In this document: positions 7,468-37,071 of the stretch, piece by piece
Layout: each line of letters opens with the position of its first letter
How positions within the stretch are numbered: position 1 is the first letter of the stretch
Origin: Chloroflexia bacterium
Lineage (GTDB): Bacteria; Chloroflexota; Chloroflexia; QHBQ01; JADMIH01
Reading direction: 5' to 3'
Assembly: GCA_036389075.1 (NCBI GenBank)
Contig: DASVQO010000045.1
Coordinates: forward strand, 1-42,358
DNA length: 42,358 nt
Notes under the pieces: model-generated
The model's input: the letters and a program-made list of their open reading frames with translations, nothing else
The model's database searches: none
Told to the model about the DNA's origin: nothing
Made by a program: the position numbers and the translations under genes

Positions 7468-7476
7468 TTAGCTTCC

Positions 7477-16406: not shown

Positions 16407-17672
16407 ATGTCCGACACTCATCGCACAATTGAGGCAGTCTGGCGCATGGAGTCGGCCAAGCTCATCGGCGCCCTGGCGCGGATCGTGCGCGACGTCGGGC
16501 TGGCTGAAGAGCTGGCCCAGGACGCGTTAGTGATAGCGCTCGAGCGGTGGCCGGAGGCCGGCGTGCCCGACAAGCCGGGCGCCTGGCTTATGGCCACCGC
16601 GAAACACCGCGCGATCGACCGGCTGCGCCACATCAAGTTGGCCGAGCGCAAGCATGAAGAACTGGGCCGCGAGCTTGGACTCCGGCACGACCTGACCGAG
16701 GCCGATTTCGAGGCCGTGCTCGATGAAGGCGACCACGTGCAGGACGACCTGTTGCGCCTGATCTTCACGGCCTGCCACCCGGTGCTCTCGACCGAGGCGC
16801 GCGTTGCCCTCTCGCTTCGCCTGCTCGGCGGCCTGACTACCCCGGAGATAGCCCGCGCCTTTCTCGTGCCGGAGGCCACGGTGGCCCAGCGCATCGTGCG
16901 GGCCAAGCGGACGCTGGCGGAGGCGCGAGTGCCGTTTGAGGTGCCGAGCGGGGCCGCGCGAGCGGCACGCCTGGCGTCGGTGCTGGAGGTGATCTATCTC
17001 ATCTTCAACGAGGGCTACTCGGCCACGGCGGGCGACGACTGGATGCGCCCCGCGCTGTGCGAGGACGCGTTGCGCCTGGGCCGCATCCTGGCGGGGCTCA
17101 TGCCGGACGAAGCCGAGGTGCACGGGCTTGTCGCGCTGATGGAGCTACAGGCCTCGCGCGTGCGGGCGCGGACCGGGCCATCGGGCGCGCCCATTCTGCT
17201 CCTCGATCAAAACCGGGGCCGCTGGGACCAGCTACTCATCCGGCGAGGTCTAGCGGCGCTAGAGCGGGCGGAGAAGTTGGGCGGGGAGCTTGGCCCTTAT
17301 ACGTTGCAGGCGGCAATCGCCGCATGTCACGCGCGGGCGCACACCCCGGACGAGACGGACTGGGCGCGTATCGCCGCTCTCTACGACGCCCTTGCTCAGC
17401 TTGCGCCATCGCCCGTAGTGGAACTGAACCGGGCTGTGGCGCTATCGATGGCGTACGGTCCCGAAGTGGGGCTTGCGCTGGTGGATACCCTGGCCTCCGA
17501 GCCATCGCTCAAGACCTACCATCTCCTGCCGAGCGTGCGGGGCGATCTCCTCGCCAGGCTTGGCCGCTTCGATGAGGCTCGCGCGGAGTTCGAACGCGCG
17601 GCGGGCCTTACGCGCAACGCCCGCGAGCGCGAACTGCTCCTCGAACGCGCGCGAGCTGCCGGGCATGAGTGA
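16407..17672 (+). CDS. ECF sigma factor with a long C-terminal TPR-like extension (ECF42-type)
   Basis: 421 aa. The sigma-2 region reads DALVIALERWPE...AWLMATAKHRAIDRLR. The sigma-4 HTH reads LTTPEIARAFLVPEATVAQRIVRAKRTL. A helical extension of about 230 aa follows. No anti-sigma gene lies adjacent, and a DGPF gene sits immediately upstream. Confidence 0.85.
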   Translation: MSDTHRTIEAVWRMESAKLIGALARIVRDVGLAEELAQDALVIALERWPEAGVPDKPGAWLMATAKHRAIDRLRHIKLAERKHEELGRELGLRHDLTEADFEAVLDEGDHVQDDLLRLIFTACHPVLSTEARVALSLRLLGGLTTPEIARAFLVPEATVAQRIVRAKRTLAEARVPFEVPSGAARAARLASVLEVIYLIFNEGYSATAGDDWMRPALCEDALRLGRILAGLMPDEAEVHGLVALMELQASRVRARTGPSGAPILLLDQNRGRWDQLLIRRGLAALERAEKLGGELGPYTLQAAIAACHARAHTPDETDWARIAALYDALAQLAPSPVVELNRAVALSMAYGPEVGLALVDTLASEPSLKTYHLLPSVRGDLLARLGRFDEARAEFERAAGLTRNARERELLLERARAAGHE

Positions 17673-18821: not shown

Positions 18822-21800
18822 TCAGCGGGCACCTCGTGCGGGTGTCTGGCAGTTGGGGAAGAAGGCGAGTGACACGAACTTGGAAGCCTGGCCTCGTGTC
18901 ACGAAGTTGGTGGGACGGAAGTAGCTGCCCGGGCACGGCTCGCCCGCGCCCCCACACGAGTAGCCGCCCACCACACCCCTGGTGGATAGCCGCTCTATGT
19001 ACTGCCAGAAGGTATCGGAGGTGGGTACGTCCGCGAAGCTCCGCTGGCCCGCAGGCACAGGCTCGTTGAACTCCGCCGCCAATGCCACAAATTTGGACAT
19101 CTGCCCCCTCGTGACAAGCGCCTCGGGCTGGAAGCAGGGCGCTCCCGTGGCGGGACACCTGTCCTGTGTGTTGTACCCGCTCACCACTCCCCTGGACGCA
19201 AGCCTCTGTATGAAGATATAGAAGGTGTGAGTGGCAGGTACGTCGGTGAAGGTCACTTCAGCGTGAGACTCGTCAAAGCCAGCCGCATTGCTCACGATCT
19301 TCGCCATCTGCCCCCGTGTGATGTTATCCCCCGGCCTGAAGCATGGCGCTCCCGTCTCCGGGCACCTGGAGGGCGAGGTGTAGCCTGAGAGTATCTCACG
19401 GCAGGCGAGGCATCGCACGTTCTCGTAGAAGTTGTTGGAGGGTGGTACGTCCGTGAACTCGATGGCGCATGGCGTCGCGGTGGCCCCTCCCGGCGGTGTA
19501 GCGGTCCGTGTGTATGTTGGCGTTGAGCTAGGGGGCGTGCCTGTTGCCGTCCGGGTAGCCGTGCCTGTGTGGGACGGTGTGGAGGTGCTAGTTGGCGTGG
19601 GGGTGGGAGCGGACACCAGGAAGCAAGGAGAGAACTCGGAGCTATTACCATCGGGGTCGATGGCCTTTGAGGTAATGTATTGCCCCACAGGCACCAGTTC
19701 GTCGAACGTCCTCGTGAAGCTCAAGCTATTGCCCGCGATGACTCCACCCAACTTGGTGGCCCCTTCGCCATGACCTGACGCGTCGCAAGTCACGCTACGG
19801 AAGATCTCGATATTGTACCCTGCCGGGTTACTATTACCCGTGCTGTCAAAGCTGCCTTCTACGGTCGTAGAGTTGCCAGTGGTAGTGACGCCGGTGAGTA
19901 TGGGGAAGTTTTGCAGGTTGTTGGGGCCTGTGTCTCCGTCTCCCGCATCGTTGGGTGTTACCCCATCGTTGCCCAGGTCTATCCCCAGGCCCGCGTTCGA
20001 GTGGGTGGTAGTGTCGAGGATCATGTTGCGGGTATCCTGGCCGCCGGTGAGAGACACCCCATCGCCCCCGTTGGAGTGAATGGAGTTGCTGTAGACCTTG
20101 TTACCGGTAGCGTAGTCGCCCGCGATAGTCACACCATCGCCGCCGTTATAGGCGATAGTATTGCCCTCCCCTTGCGAGGGGCCGCCAATCATGTGGTTGA
20201 TGGAGAACAGCGTGGGACTGCTCCCACCCTGTATGAGGACACCCGACTGTGAGTTGCCCAGGGCGCTGTTCCCCGACGCAGTTAGCCCAATAAGGTTACC
20301 GCGCACCGCGTTGTTCGACGTATCGTAGCTCAGGAGAACGCCGTGCCTGTTATTGCCGGAGATGACGTTAGGTGCCCCGGCACCACTTCCGCCTATCACG
20401 TTGCTACCGGCAATGCCCGTCACCGACGTCCCGGAAATCGTCACGCCATCCTGTGAGTTGCCCAGGTCCGCCGTGCCGGCCTTATCGGTGCCTATATAGT
20501 TCCCCTGCACCACGTTGCCGGGATAGGCACCGATGTAGATGCCGCTCGCATTGTTGCCGGAAATCAAGTTGCGTGCGCCCGGCGTCGTGCCCCCGATGGT
20601 GTTGGATGAACTGAGTGCAAACACCCCGTGCCTGCCATTCCCCAGGTCCTGGATGCCGCTGGAGTCGGTGCCGATGAAGTTCCCCTCGATCCTGGTGTTG
20701 AAGCCCCCGTTGTCGTCGTCACCCAGGCTGATACCATCACGGCCAAAGCGGCTGATGATAAGCCCACGCACCGTGCTACTGTGGGCGTGAACTCGCAGGC
20801 CATCTGTATTTGCGCCTGCCAGGCTGCCGTCCAGCAAGATGAGAGGCTGGGCATTGTTGCCGGTAGCCAGTGTGTTGGGGGCGCTCCCCGGCTGGGTATA
20901 GCCGTCTATCGTCAGTATGTCGCCTATGATAGGGAGCGGGCTTGCCGGAGTTATGGTATGCACACCGGTGCCCGCTATCGAAAAGCTGATACCGTCCGCA
21001 CCCCCGTTGCTGTTGGCATCGAGGAGGGCCTGGCGGAGGGAGTCGACACCGCTGTCGTTGGTATTAGCCACCTCGTAGTACACCCTGACGCAGTTGGAGA
21101 ACTCCGAGGTGCTGCCTGTGGGGTCAGTCATCGTGGCCGTGATGAATTGGCCTCCCAGTCCCGTCAGTGCGCGGTTATGGCTGAGGGTCAGGTTACCGCT
21201 CGAGTCGGTGAGCTGCAGGCCTGACTGGAAAAGGAAGGTCTGCCCCTCGCCATTACCTGACGCATCGCAGTAGTCGCTGGCGTAATACCTTACAGTGAAC
21301 AAAGTGTTTGGGGTGCCGTTGAAAGTGCCCTGGACAACAGTGTGGGAAGAATTGCTGGCGGCGAAAGTGAGCACTGGGAAGTTCTGCAGGTTGTTGGGAC
21401 CGGCGTCTGCGTCGAGTGCATCGTTGGCAGTCACGCCATTGCTTCCGAGCAGGTCTATTCCCTGGCCGCCGTTGGTGTGAATGGAATTTTGCAAGATTGC
21501 ATTGCGAACACTATCGTTAACAACGACAGCCACGCCGTCATCGCCGTTAAAGGCGATTACATTGCTCAGCGTGCCCGCGAAGGCGCTGTCGCCAACCGTG
21601 TTGCCTGAGGCGCTGGATATGTTGACACCCGTAAGGCTGTTCCCGAGGGCGGTGGTGCCGTCCCTCTTGGTGCCAACCAGGTTACCCTGCACCACATTGC
21701 CCAGGTTAGCTCCTGACGTTCCTGAGATGCTGATCCCGTAGGCGCCGTTGCCTGAGATGAGGTTGCGGGCCGCTGCCGTCGAACCCCCCACAGTGTTAGT

Positions 21801-22562
21801 CATGGAGCTAGAGATACTGATGCCCGAACCGGTGTTACCGAGGTCTGAGGTGCCGAAAGAATCGGTGCCGATGAAGTTCCCCTCTGTCCGGTTGCCGGAG
21901 CTTCCTGATAACTGTATCCCGTGCCGCGAAAAACGGTTGATGATAAGGCCCTTCACTGTGCTGTTGCCTGCCGTGATTGACAGACCGTCGGCGTTGGCCC
22001 CCGCCGCGCTTCCATTCAGCTCTATTAGGAGCGTGGCGCTGATAGCGCCGGGCGCAACCACTGTATTGGGGATGGAGCCAGGCTGAGTGTACCCATCGAT
22101 AGTTACGGGGCTGGTAATACCGGGAAGGGCGCTCTGCAGGTTTATGGTCTTGACGGCACCGGGCGTACCACCAATGTTGAAAGCTATGGTGTCCGCGCCC
22201 GCGTTGTTATTCGCATCTATAATGGCCTGGCGCAACGTGCCGGCTCCGCTGTCGGCGGTGGAGGTAACGGTAAAGGTTGTGGAGACAGACGGGGCCAGGA
22301 TGCCGTTCAACGTAGGTGCCTTCAACCTCGAACCGAGGATCCCCTGCCCGCTGTCCACTCGTCCCACCGCGCTGGAGAACCCGCTTGAACTTGATGGGAC
22401 CAGGGTCCTGGCTGTTGCGTGCTCGCCCAGCAAAAGGAGAGAGGATAGCAGCACCAAAACACCCGCCAGGATGAAAGCGGTATAGCGCCTGCGTCTGTGG
22501 TCAAGAGACTCTAATACCTTGTTCGAGACACCGTACTTTGCGTGCGCCCACTTTGCAGACAT
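18822..22562 (-). CDS. Large secreted parallel beta-helix protein with three C-terminal Cys-containing SLH-like repeats
   Basis: The start is set at ATG 22562, preceded by GAGGAG. The tracked start at 22649 adds 29 unlikely residues. A TM/signal segment (AFILAGVLVLLSSLLLLG) is present. Two modules of about 410 aa each open with T..DSG.G(T/S)LRQA..DAN.N.GAD.I.F.I and close with GPNNLQNFP(V/I)LT. A Pro/Thr linker follows, then 3x F.DVP....F(Y/W)..I..L..RG..(S/G)GY...C....PCFRP....TRGQ..K. Confidence 0.85.
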   Translation of the reverse strand: MSAKWAHAKYGVSNKVLESLDHRRRRYTAFILAGVLVLLSSLLLLGEHATARTLVPSSSSGFSSAVGRVDSGQGILGSRLKAPTLNGILAPSVSTTFTVTSTADSGAGTLRQAIIDANNNAGADTIAFNIGGTPGAVKTINLQSALPGITSPVTIDGYTQPGSIPNTVVAPGAISATLLIELNGSAAGANADGLSITAGNSTVKGLIINRFSRHGIQLSGSSGNRTEGNFIGTDSFGTSDLGNTGSGISISSSMTNTVGGSTAAARNLISGNGAYGISISGTSGANLGNVVQGNLVGTKRDGTTALGNSLTGVNISSASGNTVGDSAFAGTLSNVIAFNGDDGVAVVVNDSVRNAILQNSIHTNGGQGIDLLGSNGVTANDALDADAGPNNLQNFPVLTFAASNSSHTVVQGTFNGTPNTLFTVRYYASDYCDASGNGEGQTFLFQSGLQLTDSSGNLTLSHNRALTGLGGQFITATMTDPTGSTSEFSNCVRVYYEVANTNDSGVDSLRQALLDANSNGGADGISFSIAGTGVHTITPASPLPIIGDILTIDGYTQPGSAPNTLATGNNAQPLILLDGSLAGANTDGLRVHAHSSTVRGLIISRFGRDGISLGDDDNGGFNTRIEGNFIGTDSSGIQDLGNGRHGVFALSSSNTIGGTTPGARNLISGNNASGIYIGAYPGNVVQGNYIGTDKAGTADLGNSQDGVTISGTSVTGIAGSNVIGGSGAGAPNVISGNNRHGVLLSYDTSNNAVRGNLIGLTASGNSALGNSQSGVLIQGGSSPTLFSINHMIGGPSQGEGNTIAYNGGDGVTIAGDYATGNKVYSNSIHSNGGDGVSLTGGQDTRNMILDTTTHSNAGLGIDLGNDGVTPNDAGDGDTGPNNLQNFPILTGVTTTGNSTTVEGSFDSTGNSNPAGYNIEIFRSVTCDASGHGEGATKLGGVIAGNSLSFTRTFDELVPVGQYITSKAIDPDGNSSEFSPCFLVSAPTPTPTSTSTPSHTGTATRTATGTPPSSTPTYTRTATPPGGATATPCAIEFTDVPPSNNFYENVRCLACREILSGYTSPSRCPETGAPCFRPGDNITRGQMAKIVSNAAGFDESHAEVTFTDVPATHTFYIFIQRLASRGVVSGYNTQDRCPATGAPCFQPEALVTRGQMSKFVALAAEFNEPVPAGQRSFADVPTSDTFWQYIERLSTRGVVGGYSCGGAGEPCPGSYFRPTNFVTRGQASKFVSLAFFPNCQTPARGAR

Positions 22563-23063
22563 TGTAAACTCCTCAGCTATTCCGCGGGTCCCGGCTTGTG
22601 TGGTCACAAACAAGCTCTGCTGTTCAGAACGAATATATGGCGGAAGCAACCGTTATGAAAGTCCCTAATGTACGGGAACAGGGCAGCCCGGGCCAAGATC
22701 ACCTCGTCTATAGAGAAAAGGGATTCAGAGGCAACGCACAGAGCAATATGTCATGCAACGCCAAGACTGCCGGCTCTCTTAGTACCCGAAGATTGAGCAC
22801 GGTAGAGTCGCGTATGCGCGCCCAGGTAAAACCGATCGCACAAGGAGCAGATTCGGTAGCATCAAGTATAACCGACAAGCAGAGCTAATTTCAACAGCTA
22901 GATGGAGAAGCGTCTCGCAGGACCACATCAAAACCGGCAGGGGCTTCTGCTCCGGCAAAGGTTCAACCGGAATAGGGAGACGTCCTTAGGACATCCGCCC
23001 GAGAAGACGTACACTCCAGAGCCGCAACGTGATTGACGCCATAACTGAGTCCGACGCCAAACA

Positions 23064-23331: not shown

Positions 23332-25242
23332 TCACCCACCAGCCCCACCAGGAGGGACGCCAGAAGTGTCTCCGGTACCTGCTTCCGTAGGAGGGGTCCC
23401 AAGCCGCTGTCCACGCTGAGGCTCGGCTGCCTCTAATCGCTTGCGAACTTGCGCTACGTAGGCCGCACGTGCACCTACTTCCCTGTGCTTATACTCTTGT
23501 AAAAACGCCAGACCCGCTTCTAACAGCGGAACAGCCTGCGCCAAATGGCCCAACTTGGCGTGCTCGTCACCCAGGTTCCAGCTGGCGACGGCTTCTCCAG
23601 CTTGGTCGCCTATCTCCCCGGCAATTTCAAGCTGCTGTTCGTAATAGGGGATGGCTTGCCGCGAGTCCCCCAGATCGACGTAAACGTTTCCCAGATTGCC
23701 GAGGGCGACACTTTCTCCATGACGGTCCTTCAATTCGCGGGCAATTTCAAGCTGTTGTTCGTAAAAGGCGATAGCCTGATGGGAGTCATCAAGTGCCGCG
23801 TAAGCGTTGCCCAAATAGCCCAAGGCACTACTCTCCAGTTGACGGTCTCCGATTTCCTGGGCGATCTCCAACTGTTGCTCGTGATAGGAGCGGACTTGTT
23901 GGAGTTCGCCCATAGCAGCGGAGGCACGCCCCAGGGTGCCGAGGACCTTAGCTTCCCCAAGACGATCCCCGAATTCGCGGGTGACATCTAACAACTGCTC
24001 GTGGTAAGTGATAGTCCCGCGAGCATCTCCCAGGGCCATATGGGCGGTCCCCAGGATGCTGAGGGAGTTGCCTTCAGCGGCCCTGTTGCCGAAGTCCCGC
24101 GCTATCTTGAGGGCCTCGCTCGCATACTCTATGGCTTCTCGAACATCTCCCTGCAGAAGATGGGCACGGCTCATGTTGTCCAGCGCACTTCCTTCGCTAC
24201 GGCGGTCCGCAATGTCTCTCGCAATCTGGAGCCATTGCTCGTAGTAACCAATGGCTCGGGCGGTGTCACCTAGGGCCTCATAGGCCACTCCCAGGCTACC
24301 TAGGTCCTGGCCTTCAGCGCGGCGGTCTCCTATATTGCGGCTGACCTTCAGGGCGCGCTCATGGTAGGCAATGGCTCGCAGGAAATCTCCCAGGTCGGCG
24401 TAAGCGTTCCCAAGGTTTCCGAGGGCGTTACCTTCACCCCGCCGGTCCCCCAGTTCGCTCATGATAAGGAGCGCTCGTTCAGAGTGGGTAATTGCCTGCC
24501 AAGGGTCACCCAGTTCTGCGTAGGCCAGGGCGAGGTTCCCATGGGCGTTACCCTGGCCCCTGCGATCTCCCAATTCCTCTGCGATAGCAAGCGCCTGTTG
24601 GGAGCAAGTTATAGCCTGTTGAGGGTTTCGCAGGTCTGTATAGACCAGCCCCAGGTTGCCCAAGGCACCGGCTTCGCCGGCCCGATCCCCGATCTCACGT
24701 GCAATTACCAGGTGCTGCTCAAAACAGCTACGGGCTTGTTGAGGGTCGCCCATAGCCGTGTACGCCAGGCCGAGGTGGCCTAGTGCCACGCCTTCCCCAT
24801 GCCGGTTGCGGGCCGCACGAGCAAGCGCAAGGTGCTCCTGGTGATATTTGATAGCCCTATGTATATCGCCCAGCGCCAGGTAGGCGCTTCCCAGACTGCT
24901 CAGAAACCCACCCTCTGCCAAATTGCGCCCCAACCGCCGGGCGGCTGCCAGCGCGGCTTCGAGTTGGGAGATTCGCTCCTGCCGTTTGTCGTAGCGAACG
25001 TCCCCAATGTACGCAGTTCGGGTGGCATAGATGATCAACAAGTTATCTATGTCCGTATTCGTTCCAGGCGGTTGTGCAAGGAGCCAAGCCCAACCCATGT
25101 CTATCTGAGCGCGCTCCCCATCAAACTGCGCCAGTCCCGCGCGTTGTTCCGCGCCGCCCGCGCGGTATTGAACGTCCGCCTGAGCCACCACCTCAGCATA
25201 ATGCATCGCGACGCGACGGCCCGCCTCATAAGCACTCGGCAT
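23332..25242 (-). CDS. Tetratricopeptide-repeat protein (about 12 TPR units of 40 aa); sensor-arm half of a split STAND NTPase
   Basis: 636 aa. It has its own strong RBS (GAGGAGG, then 9 nt, then ATG). The N-terminus (HYAEVVAQADVQYRAGGAEQRAGLAQFDGERAQIDMGWAWLL) is the linker normally found directly after the NB-ARC winged helix. Reiterated units of the form GDRRGEG.ALGNLG.AY..LGD...AI.Y.EQ.L.IAREIGD follow. Confidence 0.85.
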   Translation of the reverse strand: MPSAYEAGRRVAMHYAEVVAQADVQYRAGGAEQRAGLAQFDGERAQIDMGWAWLLAQPPGTNTDIDNLLIIYATRTAYIGDVRYDKRQERISQLEAALAAARRLGRNLAEGGFLSSLGSAYLALGDIHRAIKYHQEHLALARAARNRHGEGVALGHLGLAYTAMGDPQQARSCFEQHLVIAREIGDRAGEAGALGNLGLVYTDLRNPQQAITCSQQALAIAEELGDRRGQGNAHGNLALAYAELGDPWQAITHSERALLIMSELGDRRGEGNALGNLGNAYADLGDFLRAIAYHERALKVSRNIGDRRAEGQDLGSLGVAYEALGDTARAIGYYEQWLQIARDIADRRSEGSALDNMSRAHLLQGDVREAIEYASEALKIARDFGNRAAEGNSLSILGTAHMALGDARGTITYHEQLLDVTREFGDRLGEAKVLGTLGRASAAMGELQQVRSYHEQQLEIAQEIGDRQLESSALGYLGNAYAALDDSHQAIAFYEQQLEIARELKDRHGESVALGNLGNVYVDLGDSRQAIPYYEQQLEIAGEIGDQAGEAVASWNLGDEHAKLGHLAQAVPLLEAGLAFLQEYKHREVGARAAYVAQVRKRLEAAEPQRGQRLGTPPTEAGTGDTSGVPPGGAGG

Positions 25243-25385
25243 AGGGTGACACCTCCTCAGGCCTGGGAGACCTACCCGACAATTGCTGTGACGTTCCTGC
25301 TAGGGTGTGCATACCGGTGCTGAGTCGGGTGGTAAGATGGGTGCTAACCATAGCAAGCCCATCATGTGATTTCCGATACATCTAC

Positions 25386-26960
25386 TTAAGGAGTTAGCAA
25401 CGTGCGTGCGTGCGTAACGAGCAGCGCATGCAACCAGAAGCGCCCGGTACTAAGGGGTTCAAGCAGTCCGCGATTCACTAGTACGCGGATCGTTGGCTTA
25501 GGATCGGCAACCTGCCAAACGCTGCGGAGAGCGGCCTCATCAAACGTCGCGGGTTTTGGCGCGAGCGCGCCCAGATAGGCAAAAGAGTCTCGGGTTGCAG
25601 GGTCCAGCAGGTCGGTGCTCTTCTGCAACAGAGCGGCCACAGTTGGGAGAGTCTCCTTACTTATCTCCGCACGATCCGCCGGTGCCTGGGCCTCCAACAG
25701 ACGTGCCCCCTCACGAATCTCTTCCAGCAAGGTGGCAACGCTGAACCCCAGTTTGGCCTCACTTTGCAGCAAACGTCCCGCAACCTGGATCGCCAGAGGC
25801 AGTCCTTCGAGGTCTCGCACTAAGGATTTACTTGCATCGATATCTGTGGCAACGACACGAGGGGCCAAAACCCGTAGCAGATCCAATGCTGCTGTTTCGT
25901 TTAGAACGTCCAGCAAATAAATGTCATCGGGCGTGGGTGCAATTGCCTCGGCGACCACCGGCAGCCGTGTCGTGAGAAGCAAGGCGCAATCCCGACCCCC
26001 AACCTGAAAGGACACCGCATGCGCTGCTTCCCAGACATCATCAACAATAAGCAGCCGCCGCTGGTTGCGTAACAGGCCTGCCAACCGGACCGAGGCTTCT
26101 TCAATGGTGCTAGCGCTCTCCAACTCGGGGTGGCCCAATGCCCGGCCCCAGGCAGCTAGCTCGGCAAAGATAGCGGGCTGCTGGCCGAGGGAAGCCCACA
26201 GAACGCCGTCCGGGAACATCCGTGCAATGTCCAGATCGTGGGCCAGTGCAGCCGCGAGACTGGTCTTTCCAACTCCAGGCCACCCCCGCACCGTGGTTAG
26301 GACGTGGAGCGGCCCTGGCGCACTGGTGGCTACACTGATCCCCAGTCGGGCTTTCAACTCGCGCAGATCTTCATCTCGGCCAAGGAGTAGTGCGGGGATC
26401 GCGGGTGCGCTCCCCGGTGCTATAGCAACGGGGGGTACGGAAAGAGTTACATCTGCCCGCAATATCTGGTTGCCGTAGTCACCATGTACTTGTAGAAATA
26501 CCGGCGGGAAGTCCCCAGATTGCTCCGACCGATTCTCCCTACGTGATGGGGCTCGGCGTGCCGTATGGATAGAGGCGTCAGAGTGTTTACTCTCGTACTT
26601 GTCTGCTACGCGGCAGAGGTGCTCCCAATCGGAAAAGGTTACCTGGGCCTTATAAGCGTCCTTAAACTCACTCACCAACTTTCGAATTTGAGTGAGGAAG
26701 AACTGCTGTTGGGCCGTTCGCTCCGTTGCGTGGCCGGTAGGCGGATCGCTTTGGTCCAGCAGTAATCGAGCCAGACTCGCCAGGTAGCCGAGGGGAGGCG
26801 TAATCCGCCCACGCTCATAGTTGCTGACCGTGCTAAGAGTAACACCATAATGCTTAGCAGCAGCATCCCTGGTCTCAAATAGAGCGCGTCGTAACTTTAT
26901 AGCCAGGTCTGCTGGCTCCTCGCCTTCAGCAAATTCCAGAAGCTCCCACTTGTCGGGCAT
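25386..26960 (-). CDS. XRE-type HTH fused to an NB-ARC/STAND P-loop NTPase (no repeat arm)
   Basis: 524 aa. The N-terminal HTH reads AAKHYGVTLSTVSNYERGRITPP. Walker A is GWPGVGKTSLAAALAHD and Walker B is RRLLIVDDVW. LLLTTR and EGLPLAIQVAG are NB-ARC hallmark motifs. The ORF ends right after the winged-helix region. A GAGGTG RBS precedes the start. Confidence 0.85.
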   Translation of the reverse strand: MPDKWELLEFAEGEEPADLAIKLRRALFETRDAAAKHYGVTLSTVSNYERGRITPPLGYLASLARLLLDQSDPPTGHATERTAQQQFFLTQIRKLVSEFKDAYKAQVTFSDWEHLCRVADKYESKHSDASIHTARRAPSRRENRSEQSGDFPPVFLQVHGDYGNQILRADVTLSVPPVAIAPGSAPAIPALLLGRDEDLRELKARLGISVATSAPGPLHVLTTVRGWPGVGKTSLAAALAHDLDIARMFPDGVLWASLGQQPAIFAELAAWGRALGHPELESASTIEEASVRLAGLLRNQRRLLIVDDVWEAAHAVSFQVGGRDCALLLTTRLPVVAEAIAPTPDDIYLLDVLNETAALDLLRVLAPRVVATDIDASKSLVRDLEGLPLAIQVAGRLLQSEAKLGFSVATLLEEIREGARLLEAQAPADRAEISKETLPTVAALLQKSTDLLDPATRDSFAYLGALAPKPATFDEAALRSVWQVADPKPTIRVLVNRGLLEPLSTGRFWLHALLVTHARTLLTP

Positions 26961-27016
26961 CCGTACACCTCATTCAGCCTCGCCGGATCGCTCGTTGCCC
27001 GTGTGATCGCTGACTA

Positions 27017-27040
27017 CTCCTTGCGCAAGGTTGCGCAAGG
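27017..27040. promoter_or_regulatory. Tandem palindromic boxes CCTTGCGCAAGG / TTGCGCAAGG (candidate HTH operator)
   Basis: ccttgcgcaaggttgcgcaaggtt contains the self-complementary octamer TTGCGCAA twice at a 10-bp period. It lies 57-80 bp upstream of the HTH-NB-ARC start, in the divergent intergenic region. Confidence 0.45.
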
Positions 27041-27181
27041 TTTCAGCACCCAGTAGTAGGATAGCAGTGCATGCAGGTGAATGGAGATCAGACGTACAGG
27101 AGTTGATCCGAGGTCCCACGAACTTTCACCACCTGCAAGCAACCTGAACCCGTCTCAAGTAGTCATTGTGGATCATTCACT

Positions 27182-27231
27182 CCGGAATGCGCTGAGCTGC
27201 AGATCATGCAGACCGGAATGCACTGAGCCGC
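27182..27231. promoter_or_regulatory. Two 20-bp direct repeats (18/20 identical) spaced 30 bp start to start
   Basis: ccggaatgcgctgagctgca lies at 27182-27201 and ccggaatgcactgagccgca at 27212-27231. They sit about 180-230 bp upstream of the candidate precursor start. Confidence 0.4.
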
Positions 27232-27413
27232 AAATCTAGCTACCGCACACGGGGCAGGCGGCCAGCAGGCTATTAACATCACACCCTGTTCACCTTAACT
27301 TGACACTAAGTGTATCACAGACACTTGTCGGTATCTCGGTGCGCAAGATATGGGCGACAGGTCAGTACAGGGCAACAACACCCTTAAGCTGTTCGAAACA
27401 AAGGAGAAACATC

Positions 27414-27632
27414 GTGAAAGTAGACCTTACACAACTCAAAGAGACGCCTCGTGGCGCGGGCAACGCGCTATGGACCGGTGCGCCGGAACGTACTGCGGCG
27501 ACTAACATGGACCAATACCTCTGTGGCTGCCTCAATAGCTATGGGGTGCCCCAGATCTGGTCGGGCCGCAGCCCAGAGCATGCAATAGCGTACGGCCATG
27601 GTAGTGCCACGTTCGCGATGCTTGGCCGTTAG
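27414..27632 (+). CDS. Candidate RiPP precursor peptide (72 aa)
   Basis: AAGGAG (27401-27406) is followed after 7 nt by GTG 27414. The product is MKVDLTQLKETPRGAGNALWTGAPERTAATNMDQYLCGCLNSYGVPQIWSGRSPEHAIAYGHGSATFAMLGR. It lies directly upstream of, and on the same strand as, the cyclodehydratase. The track shows a longer 110-aa version from 27300 that lacks an RBS. Confidence 0.45.
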   Translation: MKVDLTQLKETPRGAGNALWTGAPERTAATNMDQYLCGCLNSYGVPQIWSGRSPEHAIAYGHGSATFAMLGR

Positions 27633-27705: not shown

Positions 27706-27738
27706 GGTTCTGCTGGGACTTGCGTGCTCAGCAGAACC
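27706..27738 (+). promoter_or_regulatory. Stem-loop between precursor and cyclodehydratase (10-bp stem), plus a second one at 27640-27688
   Basis: ggttctgctg (27706-27715) pairs with cagcagaacc (27729-27738). tgccgcctgg (27640-27649) pairs with ccaggcggca (27679-27688). Neither has a U-tract. Confidence 0.5.
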
Positions 27739-27758
27739 CCTCGAAAAAGGATGGTGCT

Positions 27759-30251
27759 ATGAGTAACAATCAACAAATCAATGAGGTTCTCGATCTCACC
27801 TACTCTTCGGTCCCCGATCTTGAGGTTATCCCCATCGAAGAGGGGAAATGGCTTTGCCACTCTGCTACCGGCAGCGTTCGGATCGCGGGGCCATCCGCCC
27901 AGCCGATGGTGGAGGAGATCATGCCATTATTGAAGAACGGGTGTTTGTGGTCGACTCTACTGGCGCAGTTCCCCGGTCTGGAACCGGCCGAGTTGCGGCA
28001 GACGCTGAATGGCCTGGTGGCCAGTGGAGTCCTCAGGTGCACCGCTGGCTCGCCTCCCGACCCGGCGCCGACTCTGGCGCCTCTCCTGGCTCTCCTTGGG
28101 GGTCTCGATGTGCCAGCCGACGTTGCCGCATCCCGTCTCGCAAACGCCCGAATCGTCATCATTGGACTGGAAGGGATAGGGGCCCATCTTGCCCTGCTGC
28201 TCGCGCGGTATGGCTTGCGGCGCTTCGTTCTAGTCGATCCCTATCCGTGCCAGCCCGGCAACCTGCCGTTGCTGCCAACCGGAGGACTGGAGGCGCTCGG
28301 CCAACCTCGGCAAACATTGGTCGCCCAGGCCCTGCACGATACAAGCCCTGGCGGGAAGGACCTGGATATTACTCTCGGTCCGCCGAACCTTTCTCCAGAA
28401 TATGTGGAGCAGGTGGTCGCCGGTTGCGATTGCGTGGTCAGTTGTTTCGAACGTGGCTTTTCATCGGTCCATCACTGGGTAAATCGTGCCAGTCTGCGAG
28501 CTGGGGTACCTGCTGTGTATGCTGAAGCGCTGGGCCACCAGGGCTGGGCAGGGCCACTTGTCCTTCCCTACCGGACGTCCTGTTATACGTGCTACCGGAT
28601 GCGCGCTGTAGCTTGCGCCCCCGACATTACGGCTGCCCTAGCGTATGAGCAGCATACGGATGGGCAAAAACTGCCTCGATTGCACGCCCGCCCTGTCCTT
28701 CCCAGCCTGTTGCCTCAACTCGCCGGTCTGCTTGCTACGTCGGTCTTGCAAGTGGTACTGGGCCTTGACCCGCCAGCCCTTGCTGGACGGGTAATGGAGT
28801 GTCAGGCACTCACGCTTGTGGCAACGGTACATCCGGTGTTACAACAGCCCGACTGTCCGGATTGTAGAGGTAGCGGCCCAAGAGGCCCTGCTCACCCCAA
28901 CCTGGCAGAGTTACTGGCGGGAGGCGATTCAGCCGTCAACGCGCTAGAGATTGCTCCTGAATTGATAAGTCCCGAAACAGGTATCATCCGGGAAGTCAGT
29001 TGGTACGAAAAGGATGTGGCGGAACCGCATTTACCGTATATCTGCCGGGTGACGTTTGCGAACCACCATTTTAGATTTGAGATTCCTGCGGAGCATCTGA
29101 CCAGCGGGGGGAAGGGGCTTACTCGGGACGTTGCGCTTGCAAGTGGGCTGGGAGAGGCTATAGAGCGGTACGCAGCCGACTGGGTGGATCCAGAGGTCAT
29201 TATTTATGCCCGGCGTGCTGACCTCGATGGCCCCAGCATGAACCCTGTAGATCTCGTGCTCTACGCTCCTGAGCAGTACGCAACGGTGCCTTATCACCCA
29301 TACGAGGAAAGCAGCATCCTGGGCTGGGTCCGCGGGCGCTCGCTCGTGACCGGAGAGTCTGTGTATATGCCAGCGCTGGCGGTTTTCCTGGGCTACCAGG
29401 TCCAGCGTCCCGAGGAGCACCTGTTTCTGGTCACCTCCAATGGCGTCGCCGCCGGGGGTAGCCTCGTTCGTGCCATCCTGGCAGGCACATATGAGGTAAT
29501 CGAACGGGATGCCTTGATGATTACCTGGTTCGCCACCCTACCCGCCCGGCGCGTGGATCCGTCCACCCACCCGGATACCGAGGTTCGCGCCTTATGCCGC
29601 GCTTACCAACGGCGAGGGGTAGAAATAGGCCTGTGGCGGCTCCCTACCGATCAGCCTTGCGCCGTCTTCCTCGCCCTGGGGCTGCACCACGGATCCAAAT
29701 CGGAGCCTGCGGTAATCGCGGGTGCTGGCGCCGACCTGGCGCCGGCAGCGGCCGCGCGCAAAGCCATCCTGGAGGTGGGCCAGATCCGGCCATCATACCG
29801 GCGGAGCCTACGCCGTCCCGACGTTCGCGAACTCATGGAGGCCCTCGTCAAAAATCCGCAAAGTGTCACCACAATGCACGACCATGGGCTGCTGTATTGT
29901 AGTCCTGACATGCGCCACGCCCTCGGTTTTCTGCTGGACCAAGAGCCTGACGTGCAGGAGTGGGGGCCACTTACCGCCGGTGATCCCACTATGCAGTTGG
30001 AGCAATTGGTGAACCATTTCCGCACGACGCAGAGAGAGTTGCTCTATTATAACCTGACCCCGCCCGATCTTGCCCGGTTGGGGCTAGCAGCCGCACGGGT
30101 CATCATACCTGGTTTTCAGCCGGTTACCTTCGGTGCCGAAGAGCCGCGTCGGGGTGGAGCACGCCTCTATGAACTGCCACACCAACTCGGTCTAGCCGCG
30201 TCCCCGCTGATGCCGGAAGATCTAAATCCCTACCCTCACCCATTTGACTAA
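27759..30251 (+). CDS. Fused RRE / E1(ThiF)-like / YcaO cyclodehydratase (TOMM C-D fusion)
   Basis: I prefer the ATG at 27759 (AAGGA RBS) over the tracked TTG at 27720, which lies inside a hairpin. The region of about 27807-28043 is PqqD-like RRE (beta-strands, then ..LEPAELRQTLNGLVASGVL). The region of about 28137-28875 is Rossmann-like, with IVIIGLEGIGAHLALLLARYG and the CxxC pairs CYTCY and CPDC. From about 28962 the YcaO domain begins (SGGKGLTRDVALASGLGEAIERYAA). The C-terminus is proline-rich, ..LNPYPHPFD. Confidence 0.88.
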   Translation: MSNNQQINEVLDLTYSSVPDLEVIPIEEGKWLCHSATGSVRIAGPSAQPMVEEIMPLLKNGCLWSTLLAQFPGLEPAELRQTLNGLVASGVLRCTAGSPPDPAPTLAPLLALLGGLDVPADVAASRLANARIVIIGLEGIGAHLALLLARYGLRRFVLVDPYPCQPGNLPLLPTGGLEALGQPRQTLVAQALHDTSPGGKDLDITLGPPNLSPEYVEQVVAGCDCVVSCFERGFSSVHHWVNRASLRAGVPAVYAEALGHQGWAGPLVLPYRTSCYTCYRMRAVACAPDITAALAYEQHTDGQKLPRLHARPVLPSLLPQLAGLLATSVLQVVLGLDPPALAGRVMECQALTLVATVHPVLQQPDCPDCRGSGPRGPAHPNLAELLAGGDSAVNALEIAPELISPETGIIREVSWYEKDVAEPHLPYICRVTFANHHFRFEIPAEHLTSGGKGLTRDVALASGLGEAIERYAADWVDPEVIIYARRADLDGPSMNPVDLVLYAPEQYATVPYHPYEESSILGWVRGRSLVTGESVYMPALAVFLGYQVQRPEEHLFLVTSNGVAAGGSLVRAILAGTYEVIERDALMITWFATLPARRVDPSTHPDTEVRALCRAYQRRGVEIGLWRLPTDQPCAVFLALGLHHGSKSEPAVIAGAGADLAPAAAARKAILEVGQIRPSYRRSLRRPDVRELMEALVKNPQSVTTMHDHGLLYCSPDMRHALGFLLDQEPDVQEWGPLTAGDPTMQLEQLVNHFRTTQRELLYYNLTPPDLARLGLAAARVIIPGFQPVTFGAEEPRRGGARLYELPHQLGLAASPLMPEDLNPYPHPFD

Positions 30252-30263
30252 CCAGGAGGTACC

Positions 30264-31046
30264 ATGTTTCGCGAAATGTTTCCTATTGCGTGGGCCTTCC
30301 ACCGCAATACCTCAATTCCACCCTATCGACTAGGCGGTCCGGGCGGGCTGTTCCCTAAGGAGCCGGTCCCGCCGTTCAAGGAATACAGCACAGCCGAACT
30401 GGTACCGTTGCCCAGCCCCGGCGAACTGAAGACCTCCCTCGGCGCGGCGATACAGGAACGGCTTTCCTGCCGCCAGTTCGAGGATCACCCTCTGCCTCTC
30501 ACCACTCTCGCCACCCTGCTCCACGCCAGCTATGGGATCCAAGATCAAGTCCTCTTGGATGAGCACGAAGTGCTCAGCCGCCCGGTGCCCTCCGGCGGTG
30601 GTCTGTACCCGCTGGAAGTCTATGTCCTCGTCCGCAAGGTTCAAGGTCTCGATCCAGGAATCTACCACTATGCGGTCATAGATCACACGCTGGAGAGGCT
30701 CGATTTGGCACCTGTGCCGGCGCCACGGCTGACCGAGTTATTCTTGGGGCAGTCTTATCCAGAGGATGCGGCGCTTGTAGTGGTGATAACAGCGGTCCTG
30801 GGGCGTTCGCTAAAAAAGTATGCCGACAGAGGGTACCGCTTGGTGCTACTGGAAGCCGGTCATCTTGTCCAGAACCTGAACCTTGTAGCCACAGCCCTTG
30901 GCTGGGGAAGTGTGAACCTGGGCGGCTTTTTGGACGATGAGTTGGGCGCGGTTCTCGACCTGGATCGCGAGGTGGAGGTACCAGTCTATGCGACTGCGGT
31001 CGGCAAACCTCGAGGGACGAGCGCTGATGTCCTACGGCAAGCCTGA
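30264..31046 (+). CDS. SagB-type FMN-dependent dehydrogenase (nitroreductase fold)
   Basis: 260 aa. It starts 12 nt after the cyclodehydratase stop, with a GGAGG RBS. Motifs: IQERLSCRQF (RxSxRxF-type), PSGGGLYPLEVYV, and LLEAGHLVQNLNLVATALGWGS. Confidence 0.85.
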   Translation: MFREMFPIAWAFHRNTSIPPYRLGGPGGLFPKEPVPPFKEYSTAELVPLPSPGELKTSLGAAIQERLSCRQFEDHPLPLTTLATLLHASYGIQDQVLLDEHEVLSRPVPSGGGLYPLEVYVLVRKVQGLDPGIYHYAVIDHTLERLDLAPVPAPRLTELFLGQSYPEDAALVVVITAVLGRSLKKYADRGYRLVLLEAGHLVQNLNLVATALGWGSVNLGGFLDDELGAVLDLDREVEVPVYATAVGKPRGTSADVLRQA

Positions 31047-32874: not shown

Positions 32875-34353
32875 TTATCTTGACCCTACCTGAGACTGCG
32901 ACATGTAGACTATCTTCGCCGTCTGGCCGCGTGTGATGCTCACGGCGGGTCTGAAGTAGGGCAAATTCTGGGGCCCCACGCACGGTTCCTCCGCCCGGCT
33001 GCCGCACGCGTAGCCACTGATGATCCCACGCTCGGACATGCGCGCTGTGTGCTCGAAGAAGGCGTGGTTCGCGGGCACGTCCTCGAAGTGCTGCTCGCCT
33101 ACCCCTTCGGTGAAGTTGAAGGCCAACCCTGCGATCTTGGAGAGTTGCCCCCGGCTGACTGGTAGCCCCGGCCTGAAGTACGGCAGGTTGTCCGGTGCCA
33201 TGCACGGCTCGTCGGGTAGCTGGCCGCAAGGGTAGCCGCCGATGTTGCTTCGGTCCGAGAGCCTAGAGATCGGCTCGTAGAAGTTGCTACCCTCCGCCAC
33301 GTCCTGGAACTTGCGGCCCTCTACCGGCTCCGTGTACCCGGCGGCCATGGCCACTATCTTGGCTGTTTGGCCCCGCGTGACGTCGCTGTAGGGCCCGAAG
33401 CAGGGCACGTGGTTCGCAGCGGGGCAGGGCGGGGACGAGTTGTATCCTGAGATGACGTTTTGCTCGCTGAGGCTCAGCACCGGCTCATAGAAGTAATCAC
33501 CGGGACACACGTCCCTGTAGCGCTCACCGGGGCACCTAGGTGGTTCGGGGGTGGGTGTGGTGCAGGCGGGCTGGGAGAAGGTGAGCTTCAGCCCGAAACT
33601 CAGGCTGTTCTGCGTGTAGCAGGAGAACTGGCTAGCCTGCTCGCTGTTGCGCTGCACTCCTACCGTGGTGGTCTCACCGCCGCCTTCCACCGTGCCGTAG
33701 AGAACCTCAAAATCAGATCTGTTTTCGAAGAACTTGATCTCGAAGTTGACGCGGCCGGCACAGGTGCCGAGGTCGTATATGCACGCTCGCCACTCGATAT
33801 TGAACACCCTGGTAGGAGCACTGCCAGTTACAGAGGTCAATATGCCAAGGTCGGCGCCTGCTGCGGTGCGCATGTCGAGATCGTCCCAGTGGGGGAAGAT
33901 TGTGTACTCGTAGGCACTGGTAGGCAAGCACTCATTAAGCATGAAGTCGGTGTCGTTCTGGAGGCTTAGGAAGCCGTTAGACGAGACGTAGGCCTGGGTG
34001 AAGGTGCGGTCGTAGAGGCGGAGGGGGAAGGGGAAATAGAGTAGGCGGTTGCAGTCATCACACTGAGAACCAGGTATCAGGGTGGTGGCTGGCTCCAGAG
34101 TGTCCGTGGACGCTGTTATGACGTAGTCACTCAACTCCCCGCACGCAGGACCAGTCCCCTGGGAGACAGGCTTTAGTGCCGGGGGCGTTCTGGGTGCGCC
34201 CTTGGCAGAGTCGTTATATAGAACTTTCGCGCTTACCATTCGCGGTTGGGTCTCTACTCCAGCGTTAGCAGGGAGTATCTGTAGCAGGCATAGCGTGAGT
34301 GCAGCAATCGCAGAGATATACGTGTAAGTGCGCTTGGCAGAGGTCCTGTGCAT
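32875..34353 (-). CDS. Secreted surface protein with three C-terminal Cys-containing SLH-like repeats
   Basis: Signal peptide (ISAIAALTLCLLQILPANAG). The N-terminal domain of about 270 aa is of unknown function. It is followed by three repeats of the same F.DV....F(Y/F)....(L/M)S....I.GY.C.....PC....(Y)FRP...(V/I)(T/S)RGQ..KI type seen at the end of the 18822-22562 protein. Confidence 0.8.
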   Translation of the reverse strand: MHRTSAKRTYTYISAIAALTLCLLQILPANAGVETQPRMVSAKVLYNDSAKGAPRTPPALKPVSQGTGPACGELSDYVITASTDTLEPATTLIPGSQCDDCNRLLYFPFPLRLYDRTFTQAYVSSNGFLSLQNDTDFMLNECLPTSAYEYTIFPHWDDLDMRTAAGADLGILTSVTGSAPTRVFNIEWRACIYDLGTCAGRVNFEIKFFENRSDFEVLYGTVEGGGETTTVGVQRNSEQASQFSCYTQNSLSFGLKLTFSQPACTTPTPEPPRCPGERYRDVCPGDYFYEPVLSLSEQNVISGYNSSPPCPAANHVPCFGPYSDVTRGQTAKIVAMAAGYTEPVEGRKFQDVAEGSNFYEPISRLSDRSNIGGYPCGQLPDEPCMAPDNLPYFRPGLPVSRGQLSKIAGLAFNFTEGVGEQHFEDVPANHAFFEHTARMSERGIISGYACGSRAEEPCVGPQNLPYFRPAVSITRGQTAKIVYMSQSQVGSR

Positions 34354-36861: not shown

Positions 36862-37071
36862 GTCTGAGAAGCTGACAAGAGGACAACAAGCAAGCCGGCT
36901 TGCTTACGAGGCACGCCCTCACAACAGATGTTCATCACCATCTGTGCGTGATTCACGTTTCTATGGTGTCGTGAAGATAGTTTTGGATGATCACCGCGCT
37001 CAGATTACGCTTGACGAAGGCTTCTTCATTGCTGATGGCTATCGCAGTGAAGAGTCGGCAACTGGTCGTAC

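Follow-up and report, generated by a model that had tools for sequence, protein, structure and literature searches.

Is a STAND NTPase that is encoded by two genes instead of one a working switch or the remains of a broken one? This question is raised by a stretch of DNA from a Chloroflexia bacterium (NCBI GenBank assembly GCA_036389075.1, contig DASVQO010000045.1, 42,358 nt, hereafter the window), in which a gene encoding a helix-turn-helix (HTH) and an NB-ARC domain (gene 1) is followed by a gene for a tetratricopeptide repeat (TPR) protein (gene 2), both divergent from an operon for a ribosomally synthesized and post-translationally modified peptide (RiPP). STAND and NLR switches are understood as single chains, in which an arm and a sensor hold the module shut in cis until a ligand arrives. 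In the window, the sensor repeats are not covalently C-terminal to the nucleotide-binding oligomerization module (NOD) as in a canonical single-chain STAND. Instead, the NB-ARC open reading frame (ORF) does not extend past the winged helix region, and the next ORF downstream, in the same orientation, encodes an arm motif and then the TPRs. The initial annotation of this DNA had left three options: a functional two-chain STAND, a recent gene fission, or a decayed gene. The first has gained strong support from conservation in relatives and from purifying selection, and the same evidence speaks against the other two. From these comparisons we consider it very probable that the pair is a functional two-chain STAND. 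Its parts are the following:

25386..26960, minus strand: gene 1, output-plus-switch subunit, 524 aa, with N-terminal module, disordered linker and complete NB-ARC NOD (nucleotide-binding domain, NBD; helical domain 1, HD1; winged-helix domain, WHD)
26556..26960, minus strand: N-terminal module of gene 1 (aa 1-135), presumed output domain, XRE-type HTH plus conserved helical extension
25386..26408, minus strand: NOD of gene 1, from aa 185 to the stop codon after aa 524, with P-loop NBD, HD1 and winged helix
25243..25385, minus strand: non-coding spacer of 143 nt between gene 1 and gene 2
23332..25242, minus strand: gene 2, 636 aa, with arm, 12 TPR units and C-terminal tail
24904..25242, minus strand: arm of gene 2 (aa 1-113), helical linker equivalent to helical domain 2 (HD2), sequence MPSAYEAGRRVAMHYAEV...
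23464..24903, minus strand: sensor region of gene 2 (aa 114-593), 12 in-phase 40-aa TPR units of LGN/Pins type
23332..23463, minus strand: C-terminal tail of gene 2 (aa 594-636) and stop codon

By its sequence motifs and its modelled fold, gene 1 is a STAND NTPase of the NB-ARC / AP-ATPase clade. The Pfam NB-ARC profile matched aa 223-407 (E 6e-19, 68.6 bits versus a cut-off of 23.5), and the P-loop NBD is marked by a Walker A motif (GWPGVGKT at 226) and a Walker B motif (LLIVDDVW at 303). Together with LLTTR at 328, GLPLA of HD1 at 386 and the MHD-like WLHAL of the winged helix at 509-513, which supplies the MHD-type histidine (His511), the motif set of an active switch is complete. AfsR was the closest solved relative of the NOD (E 1e-15), with gene 1 aa 174-520 aligned to positions 278-612 of the 993 residues of AfsR. 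The alignment passes through the winged-helix segments ...GRYRFHDLV and '...FHDLV..YA' and ends at aa 520 of 524, which places the stop codon of gene 1 four residues past the winged helix, just where the initial annotation had seen the protein end. In the AlphaFold2 (AF2) model of gene 1 (pLDDT 80), a helical N-terminal module (aa 1-127) is confident (>90), the linker (aa 128-179) is disordered and the NOD is again confident; the best matches of this model in the PDB, found with Foldseek, were the NB-ARC domains of ZAR1, NRC1 and Apaf-1.

The N-terminal module of gene 1 had been assigned to the XRE-type HTH domains and not to the SARP/OmpR or LuxR type, and this was borne out. Residues 30-67 scored above the Pfam cut-offs for HTH_31 (28.8 bits, cut-off 27) and HTH_3 (27.8 bits, cut-off 23), while neither a Trans_reg_C or BTAD domain, as in Streptomyces antibiotic regulatory proteins (SARPs), nor a LuxR/GerE domain was found in gene 1 with Pfam. 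The pair is not of the MalT/LAL type either, the only likeness being TPR_MalT repeat similarity in gene 2. The HTH is followed by a conserved helical extension with the pattern PPLGYLASL ... F.DWE.L...AD.YES, and the module as a whole (aa 1-135) is kept in the relatives P0002-P0006, P0039 and P0048 (P and L numbers are our handles for search representatives and related loci).

Gene 2 follows after the 143-nt gap described earlier, in a reading frame different from that of gene 1, and the previously noted ribosome-binding site (RBS) GAGGAGG is indeed present at 25252-25258, 9 nt ahead of the ATG at 25242. Eleven TPR_12 stretches (Pfam, E 4e-98) resolve into exactly 12 phased units of 40 aa, where about 12 had been estimated, and the TPR region also shows a tandem periodicity of 120 nt in the DNA. 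At its very end (23335-23409), gene 2 encodes a Gly/Pro/Thr-rich low-complexity tail of about 25 aa, which is missing from the 611-aa orthologue in locus L001. The segment ahead of the repeats corresponds to what lies between winged helix and TPRs in fused proteins: the coordinates of the NCBIfam models for AfsR and HaaT leave about 110 profile positions there. Its N-terminus, MPSLREAxLRHAxHY, is kept in downstream partners at dozens of loci. A query with the 126-aa gene 2 arm in a word-indexed protein database returned a single match, a search whose sensitivity is limited by the short query and the index. Arms were detected with local hidden Markov models (HMMs) built from the partner ORFs of fetched loci, combined with an exhaustive search of representatives with gene 1.

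A recent fission or a decaying pseudogene would mean that a frameshift or stop codon had split a fused HTH-NB-ARC-TPR gene, whose second half kept or gained an RBS by chance. The differing reading frames, the unusually long spacer of 143 nt and the existence of fused relatives (seven of the best 150 representatives considered below, and genes of 907 and 839 aa in L002 and L082) would fit such an origin. However, comparison with close relatives points the other way. The DNA of the same locus was assembled in five independent samples with a gap that is identical wherever covered, so that stop codon and gap are not sequencing artefacts. In L001, the orthologues share 83% (gene 1) and 90% (gene 2) identity with the window genes and are separated by 132 nt; the supposedly detached gene is thus the better conserved one. 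L002 has an orthologue of 65% identity, a 60-nt spacer and two partner genes, and L082 (59%) is arranged likewise. In all three loci the gene 1 orthologue has 481-524 aa, stops at the winged helix and is accompanied by a separate partner starting with MP..YEA..R.A.HYA. This identical stop position and the partner start are kept down to about 50% identity and across phyla.

Measured against L001, dN/dS was 0.28 for gene 1, 0.16 for gene 2 and 0.14 for the arm alone, which indicates purifying selection on both genes. The spacer evolved like non-coding DNA in the same comparison: the 143 nt of the window and the 132 nt of L001 align with 101 identities and with indels that are not multiples of three. 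Nor does the spacer align to the coding sequence of fused relatives, in which the junction measures only 5-12 residues. The check proposed in the initial annotation, whether orthologues are uniformly fused and the gap consists of coding remnants, has thus come out in the negative, the orthologues being split and the spacer resembling non-coding sequence. Because of conservation, dN/dS and the fused junctions, we rejected both the pseudogene and the recent fission, to which we give next to no weight.

Some further features of these close relatives were observed. L001 holds a second, more distant pair of an HTH-NB-ARC gene (511 aa) and a TPR gene (424 aa) that overlap by 4 nt (L001:568-3374). 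It separates the gene 1 orthologue from the conserved intergenic region and represents a tandem duplication or an insertion of a whole split pair. The HTH part of gene 1 (26631-26960) has diverged from its counterpart at L001:3428-3757 with a dS of 1.2 and 58% amino acid identity, compared with a dS of just 0.27 for the NOD; this steep difference suggests that the N-terminal module was exchanged by recombination. At L003:7992-10061 (P0004), a gene 1 orthologue of 64% identity and 689 aa runs into a 165-aa tail resembling a transposase-like zinc-ribbon/HTH protein. It has no TPR partner, the MHD histidine is replaced by serine and type I restriction-modification genes follow it. L003 was considered as a fused orthologue and rejected on account of the transposase-like tail, the missing partner and the lost MHD histidine, which point to a disrupted or rewired locus.

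The spacer was also considered as a functional RNA or as the start of a second transcription unit. Both were rejected: the spacer had no match in Rfam and no stable RNA fold (z 0.11), neither a terminator-like nor a sigma-70-like site was found within its 143 nt, and it holds no conserved small ORF, the 22-codon ORF of the window being without ATG in L001. With terminator, promoter, stable fold and Rfam match all missing from the spacer sequence, co-transcription of gene 1 and gene 2 would be the simplest reading.

The split had been treated as an oddity of this locus, a view that did not survive a wider search. Homology searches with gene 1 gave 120 top matches of 300-900 aa that carry an NB-ARC domain without TPRs, with variable N-termini and NODs that are 57-70% identical. 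A scan restricted to one genome per species gave 79 loci, mostly from Chloroflexota and also from Acidobacteriota, Planctomycetota, Verrucomicrobiota, KSB1 and others. L001-L081 and the window together contributed 84 NB-ARC genes, of which 81 stop 0-11 codons past the winged helix, two run off the contig and one, the disrupted gene of L003, continues; not one of the 84 is fused to TPRs. A same-strand arm-TPR gene was present within 3 kb of 57 of these genes and in about 45 of these cases starts less than 50 nt from the stop codon. In most loci the co-oriented partner ORF, which matches gene 2, starts 3-7 nt after the stop or overlaps it by 4 nt. An exhaustive HMMER search with gene 1 through 1.84 billion cluster representatives (50% identity) yielded 12,725 relatives, with 1,246 clusters at E<=1e-30. 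Among the 150 top-ranking cluster representatives, the protein terminates no more than 14 residues past the winged helix in 143. Judged by these sequence comparisons, a very large clade has inherited the break behind the winged helix from its ancestor, its members normally encode the two parts in separate genes, and the window locus is an ordinary case among them. The sole local peculiarity of the window pair is its long spacer of 143 nt.

The remaining seven of the best 150 representatives are fused and carry a C-terminal extension of 320-540 aa. In each, only 5-12 residues separate the winged helix from the arm motif, and these junctions confirm the earlier proposal that gene 2 opens with the sequence that usually continues an NB-ARC protein. 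In P0170, the winged helix runs straight into the arm motif ('...HARSLLTEDGPGMPTLREAHCRHSTYY...') and the MPTLREA start of the partner is still present ('...LLTEDGPGMPTLREAHCRH...'). Such a junction fits an origin of the fused proteins by occasional fusion of a pair that is normally split.

The number of partners varies as well. In most relatives, the NB-ARC gene is closely followed by separate arm-TPR genes, from one to seven in number, the window having one. With an arm-specific HMM, at least two arm-TPR proteins were detected in 33 of 74 loci, and the arm is nearly always N-terminal in the ORF that encodes it. One NB-ARC gene followed by a tandem array of three to seven arm-TPR genes was seen in L014:6169-9900 and L020:9090-13000 (three genes each) and in L012; larger ones comprise five consecutive genes in L016:9011-16300 and six in L040. 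These arrays suggest that the separation of sensor and switch allows several trans sensors per switch.

The two products might instead act independently, gene 1 as a sensor-less 'medium' STAND regulator and gene 2 as a generic TPR scaffold that merely shares the operon. NB-ARC regulators without repeats do exist, as exemplified by medium-sized SARPs, which combine SARP and NB-ARC domains without TPRs (PMC12224297), and 13 of the scanned NB-ARC genes have no arm-TPR gene within 3 kb although the contig has room for one. Against independent products stands that the partner always opens with the very arm segment that follows the winged helix in fused proteins, and that the two genes are tightly adjacent in most loci. 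Structure prediction argues in the same direction. We joined the gene 1 NOD (aa 181-524) head to tail with aa 1-360 of gene 2 and modelled the chimera with AF2, using an alignment of the seven fused relatives and NOD-only homologues as input. The chimera was predicted confidently as one STAND-TPR protein (pLDDT 88, pTM 0.75). Its best match in the PDB was PH0952 (6mfv) over 720 columns, and full-length inactive Apaf-1 aligned over 492 columns, up from 353 with gene 1 alone. This increase would place the gene 2 arm where HD2 lies. Taken together, independent products appear improbable.

If the two proteins work together, a division of labor can be proposed. The gene 1 protein would provide the output, in the form of the XRE-type HTH module, and the nucleotide switch, and the gene 2 protein would provide the arm and the 12-repeat TPR sensor. 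By analogy to MalT, AfsR and Apaf-1, the gene 2 arm would dock in trans on the ADP-bound NOD of gene 1 and keep it closed. Binding of a ligand, possibly a peptide, by the TPR solenoid would release the arm, upon which the NOD would exchange ADP for ATP and oligomerize. The HTH modules clustered in this way would then bind the TTGCGCAAGG repeats in the intergenic region at 26961-27413, upon which transcription of the divergent operon, and probably also of the regulator genes, would be turned on. Complex formation, co-transcription and binding of the HTH to the dyad are thus predictions of this model. As a whole, a two-subunit STAND switch activating the neighboring operon is the explanation that we favor and hold to be more probable than not, with the steps from docking to activation drawn from the analogous systems.

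The divergent operon had been described as a RiPP operon and proved to be a true cluster for a thiazole/oxazole-modified microcin (TOMM), with precursor, fused ThiF-YcaO protein and SagB. It consists of the following features, together with the region that separates it from gene 1:

26961..27413, no strand: divergent intergenic region separating gene 1 from the TOMM operon; alignments show its sequence to be conserved in L001, L002 and L082
27021..27040, no strand: candidate operator, tandem palindrome TTGCGCAAGG x2 with a period of 10 nt, 61-80 nt upstream of the gene 1 ATG
27414..27632, plus strand: TOMM precursor peptide, 72 aa, with GTG start and AAAGGAG RBS, VKVDLTQLKETP...CGC...ATFAMLGR
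27720..30251, plus strand: fused E1-like/ThiF (SagC-type) and YcaO (SagD-type) cyclodehydratase, for which gene callers prefer the ATG at 27759 (830 aa)
30264..31046, plus strand: SagB-family FMN dehydrogenase (TIGR03605)

The ThiF-YcaO protein was recognized by the Pfam profiles YcaO (E 5e-70) and ThiF (E 2e-23) and by TIGR03604 (307.6 bits, cut-off 219) and TIGR03882 (47.3, cut-off 36.9). SagB, a dehydrogenase that converts azolines into azoles, matched TIGR03605 with E 2e-44 and 151 bits (cut-off 78). With a YcaO protein and its E1-like partner, SagB and a precursor with a CGC core, the operon is a minimal TOMM cluster. The 72-aa precursor gene was called at the same position in independent assemblies and has homologues in L002 and L082. 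The three precursors share the leader D(L/I)xxxLxxTP, a CxC core and a C-terminal AFAxLGR; they differ in length, with 72 aa in the window (27414-27632), 43 aa in L002 (about 7400-7528, minus strand) and 57 aa in L082 (about 7413-7586, minus strand).

Synteny and intergenic sequence both tie the pair to this operon. Precursor, ThiF-YcaO and SagB genes are divergent from the pair in the window, in L002, whose operon proteins are 69-70% identical, and in L082. In L001, the DNA ahead of the first HTH-NB-ARC gene can be aligned with the full length of the window's intergenic region up to the precursor RBS, where the contig ends. The genes outside differ between the window and L002/L082, from which we conclude that the five-gene module travels as a unit. 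Using tblastn, a YcaO homologue was found only in L002 among L001-L081, and L082 was added by a later look-up of gene context; only the closest subclade therefore shows the RiPP link, which does not extend to the whole clade. The N-terminal module of gene 1 is kept also in relatives of 46-56% identity that do not adjoin a TOMM operon.

The tandem pair of TTGCGCAAGG is unique in the window, with none expected from 100 shuffles. Equivalent tandem dyads occupy the corresponding position in L001 (374/384) and L082 (7967/7977), L002 has a degenerate copy, and no more than three such pairs occur in the 1.08 Mb of loci that were fetched. Two more conserved elements were noticed between the dyad and the precursor gene. 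A direct repeat of 31 nt at 27171-27232, 84% identical, contains CCGGAATGCNCTGAGC; the conserved element CCGGAATGYRCTGAG, which is duplicated here, is present in both copies in L001 and in one copy each in L002 and L082. Located between the dyad and the promoter of the precursor gene, this repeat might serve as an additional regulatory site. A block CTTGACACTAAGTGTATCACAGACACTTGTC at 27299-27335, about 80 nt upstream of the precursor start, is conserved in all four related intergenic regions and is likely a promoter or an operator, although a simple sigma-70 scan did not call it. The conserved intergenic elements would support a DNA-binding regulator acting in this region. Control of the adjacent TOMM operon by the pair, which the initial annotation had deduced from gene position, is thus plausible, given the conserved synteny and a tandem dyad in four related loci.

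Several observations weigh against this model. The dyad is next to gene 1 and about 280 nt away from the promoter-like block ahead of the precursor, and because gene 1 is its nearest neighbor it may serve autoregulation only. A fused HTH-NB-ARC-TPR gene is present on the far side of the TOMM operon in L002 (1266-3989, 907 aa) and L082 (1374-3893, 839 aa) and could be the real regulator there; it has no counterpart in the window. The spacer of 143 nt is atypical for a clade in which translation is usually tightly coupled, with 3-7 nt as the usual distance. The chimera is covalently joined and hence cannot prove docking in trans, with which it is consistent. Finally, the N-terminal module of gene 1 is shared with TIR proteins adjacent to related pairs, which may be the signature of a homotypic adaptor and not of a sequence-specific DNA binder. 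In L002 and L082, one fused and one split STAND thus surround one RiPP cluster.

The shared module leads to another explanation, in which the pair is an NLR-like conflict or defense sensor and the N-terminal module of gene 1 is a homotypic adaptor, similar to effector-associated domains (EADs), that recruits effectors carrying the same module. Recruitment would follow once the TPR subunit has sensed an invader and the NOD has oligomerized. These effectors would be TIR proteins in relatives and would be encoded elsewhere in this genome, with the TOMM operon as a co-opted toxic effector or an unrelated neighbor. The caveat about defense in the initial annotation was well founded, since relatives carry caspase, PNP, trypsin and EAD N-termini or are linked to TIR proteins. 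In detail, the N-termini of the clade comprise caspase, PNP, trypsin, EAD1/7/8/10 and DUF4062, which are typical of conflict systems, and also HATPase_c_4. TIR proteins encoded directly upstream of NB-ARC and TPR genes at L083:272-1330 and L084:6870-7952 carry the same N-terminal module of about 120 aa. Within these loci, whose gene 1 relatives share 46-48% identity with gene 1, the TIR-borne and NB-ARC-borne copies of the module are 52% identical. L085 adjoins Cas10 and the disrupted L003, as mentioned, restriction-modification genes. In addition, Kaur et al. (2020) described AP-ATPase-TPR genes coupled to peptide-processing systems and proposed, for AP-ATPase-linked systems, that the processed peptides serve as a toxin or a signal.

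For the window itself, the evidence is different. An HMM of the N-terminal module found gene 1 only, so that no second gene with this module is present in the 42-kb window, and the module passes the curated Pfam cut-offs for XRE HTH domains. No specific PADLOC match to Avs/AVAST or another defense model was obtained for either gene; gene 1 gave weak hits to TRIP13 (E 7e-5, P-loop only) and mad1 (E 0.006), and gene 2 matched a generic TPR model. The window is ordinary chromosome with S-layer, cell-wall polysaccharide and sigma-factor genes and not a defense island. Moreover, the subclade of at least 59% identity always adjoins the TOMM operon, with the conserved dyad in between. We regard a defense adaptor as less likely than the regulator for this pair, though as a serious rival and more credible than independent products. 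The regulator and the adaptor are not fully exclusive, as an NLR-like sensor could induce the TOMM peptide as its effector, in agreement with the proposed role of processed peptides as toxin or signal.

How does the two-chain regulator relate to systems that are already known? AfsR and the large SARPs of Streptomyces (PDB 8k60, 8jke) likewise couple DNA binding as output to an NB-ARC switch and TPRs as sensor, and they control secondary-metabolite genes. In the NCBIfam model of AfsR, gene 1 and gene 2 match successive stretches, with 68.5 and 115 bits against a cut-off of 1430. In contrast to the pair, AfsR is one polypeptide of 993 aa with an OmpR-type winged HTH and a BTAD domain instead of an XRE HTH. 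Apaf-1, CED-4 and plant NLRs have the NBD-HD1-WHD fold and its motifs in common with gene 1 (Foldseek: Apaf-1 1z6t, TM 0.51, rmsd 4.3 over 360 columns; NB-ARC of NRC1, TMt 0.75), but their sensor is formed by WD40 or LRR repeats of the same polypeptide, with CARD, CC or TIR domains as output. PH0952 from Pyrococcus horikoshii (6mfv) is a STAND protein with a TPR sensor and a TM of about 0.5 to the modelled assembly; it is a single polypeptide with just 14% identity. The Avs proteins follow the same plan of variable N-terminal effector, NOD and TPR-like sensor, though with nucleases, SIR2 and similar effectors and not an HTH. A split-TPR variant of Avs1 has been mentioned (Evans et al. 2026, PMC13601566) and provides a precedent for a separately encoded TPR sensor.

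A coupling of NB-ARC and TPR proteins to RiPP modification is also found in HaaT of cyclophane RiPPs and in the FxSxx-COOH TPR protein; together with AfsR and the couplings described by Kaur et al., these are precedents for the proposed link of the pair to the TOMM operon. The NCBIfam model of HaaT matches gene 1 at positions 105-425 and gene 2 at positions 537-813, and the FxSxx_TPR model matches as well, all with scores far below the family cut-offs. These proteins differ from the pair in being fused, in having no HTH and in belonging to radical-SAM or cyclophane chemistry instead of azole formation by YcaO and SagB. EAD-type conflict systems (Kaur, Burroughs, Iyer, Aravind 2020/2021) are approached by clade members with N-terminal EAD1, EAD7, EAD8 or EAD10, and their principle is realized in L083 and L084, where the NTPase and the adjacent TIR effector have the N-terminal module in common. 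In the window, however, gene 1 is the sole carrier of the module within 42 kb, and the module is a recognizable XRE HTH. RRNPP regulators such as PlcR, NprR and Rgg offer a functional analogy only: they join an XRE-type HTH to a peptide-binding TPR domain and often control peptide or bacteriocin loci, yet they have no NTPase switch and keep HTH and TPR in one chain, and homology beyond these generic domains was neither looked for nor found. The parts of the system are hence known, namely NB-ARC STAND, XRE HTH, TPR sensor and TOMM cluster, and it is the split architecture of the clade that deserves attention.

A full-text literature search found no description of the split clade or of the arm-TPR arrays, which is absence of evidence from one library. 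With the sensor on a separate polypeptide in at least 143 distinct clusters at 50% identity, and often with several paralogous sensors for one NOD, autoinhibition and activation would have to act in trans in this clade. We tentatively suggest, as a possibility that falls short of an even chance, that the split is the design principle of a very large and apparently undescribed 'trans-sensor' clade of NLR-like proteins, which is wired here to an inducible TOMM peptide. If so, members of the clade would consist of a NOD chassis, a swappable N-terminal output such as an HTH, a TIR-linked adaptor, caspase, PNP, trypsin or EADs, and one to seven arm-TPR sensors in tandem arrays. Sensors could then be multiplexed, exchanged and diversified without touching the switch, and a RiPP would be the output of an NLR-like sensor. 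The pair would offer a natural system for studying the arm-release model, the integration of several sensors and sensor swapping by gene exchange. The five-gene module of sensor, switch with HTH, precursor, cyclodehydratase and dehydrogenase also suggests a route to activating a silent Chloroflexota TOMM cluster, either through a regulator with a mutated MHD motif or a deleted arm or through the ligand of the TPRs. The N-terminal module common to regulators and TIR-linked relatives may represent an evolutionary bridge between immune-type NLRs and pathway regulators.

On both sides, the module is flanked by genes for proteins with S-layer homology (SLH) domains, one of 1275 aa with right-handed beta-helix repeats (18822-22649) and one of 492 aa (32875-34353). 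Farther out, an ECF-type sigma factor with a DUF6596 domain is encoded at 16407-17672, and cell-wall polysaccharide genes lie at 34541-37902.

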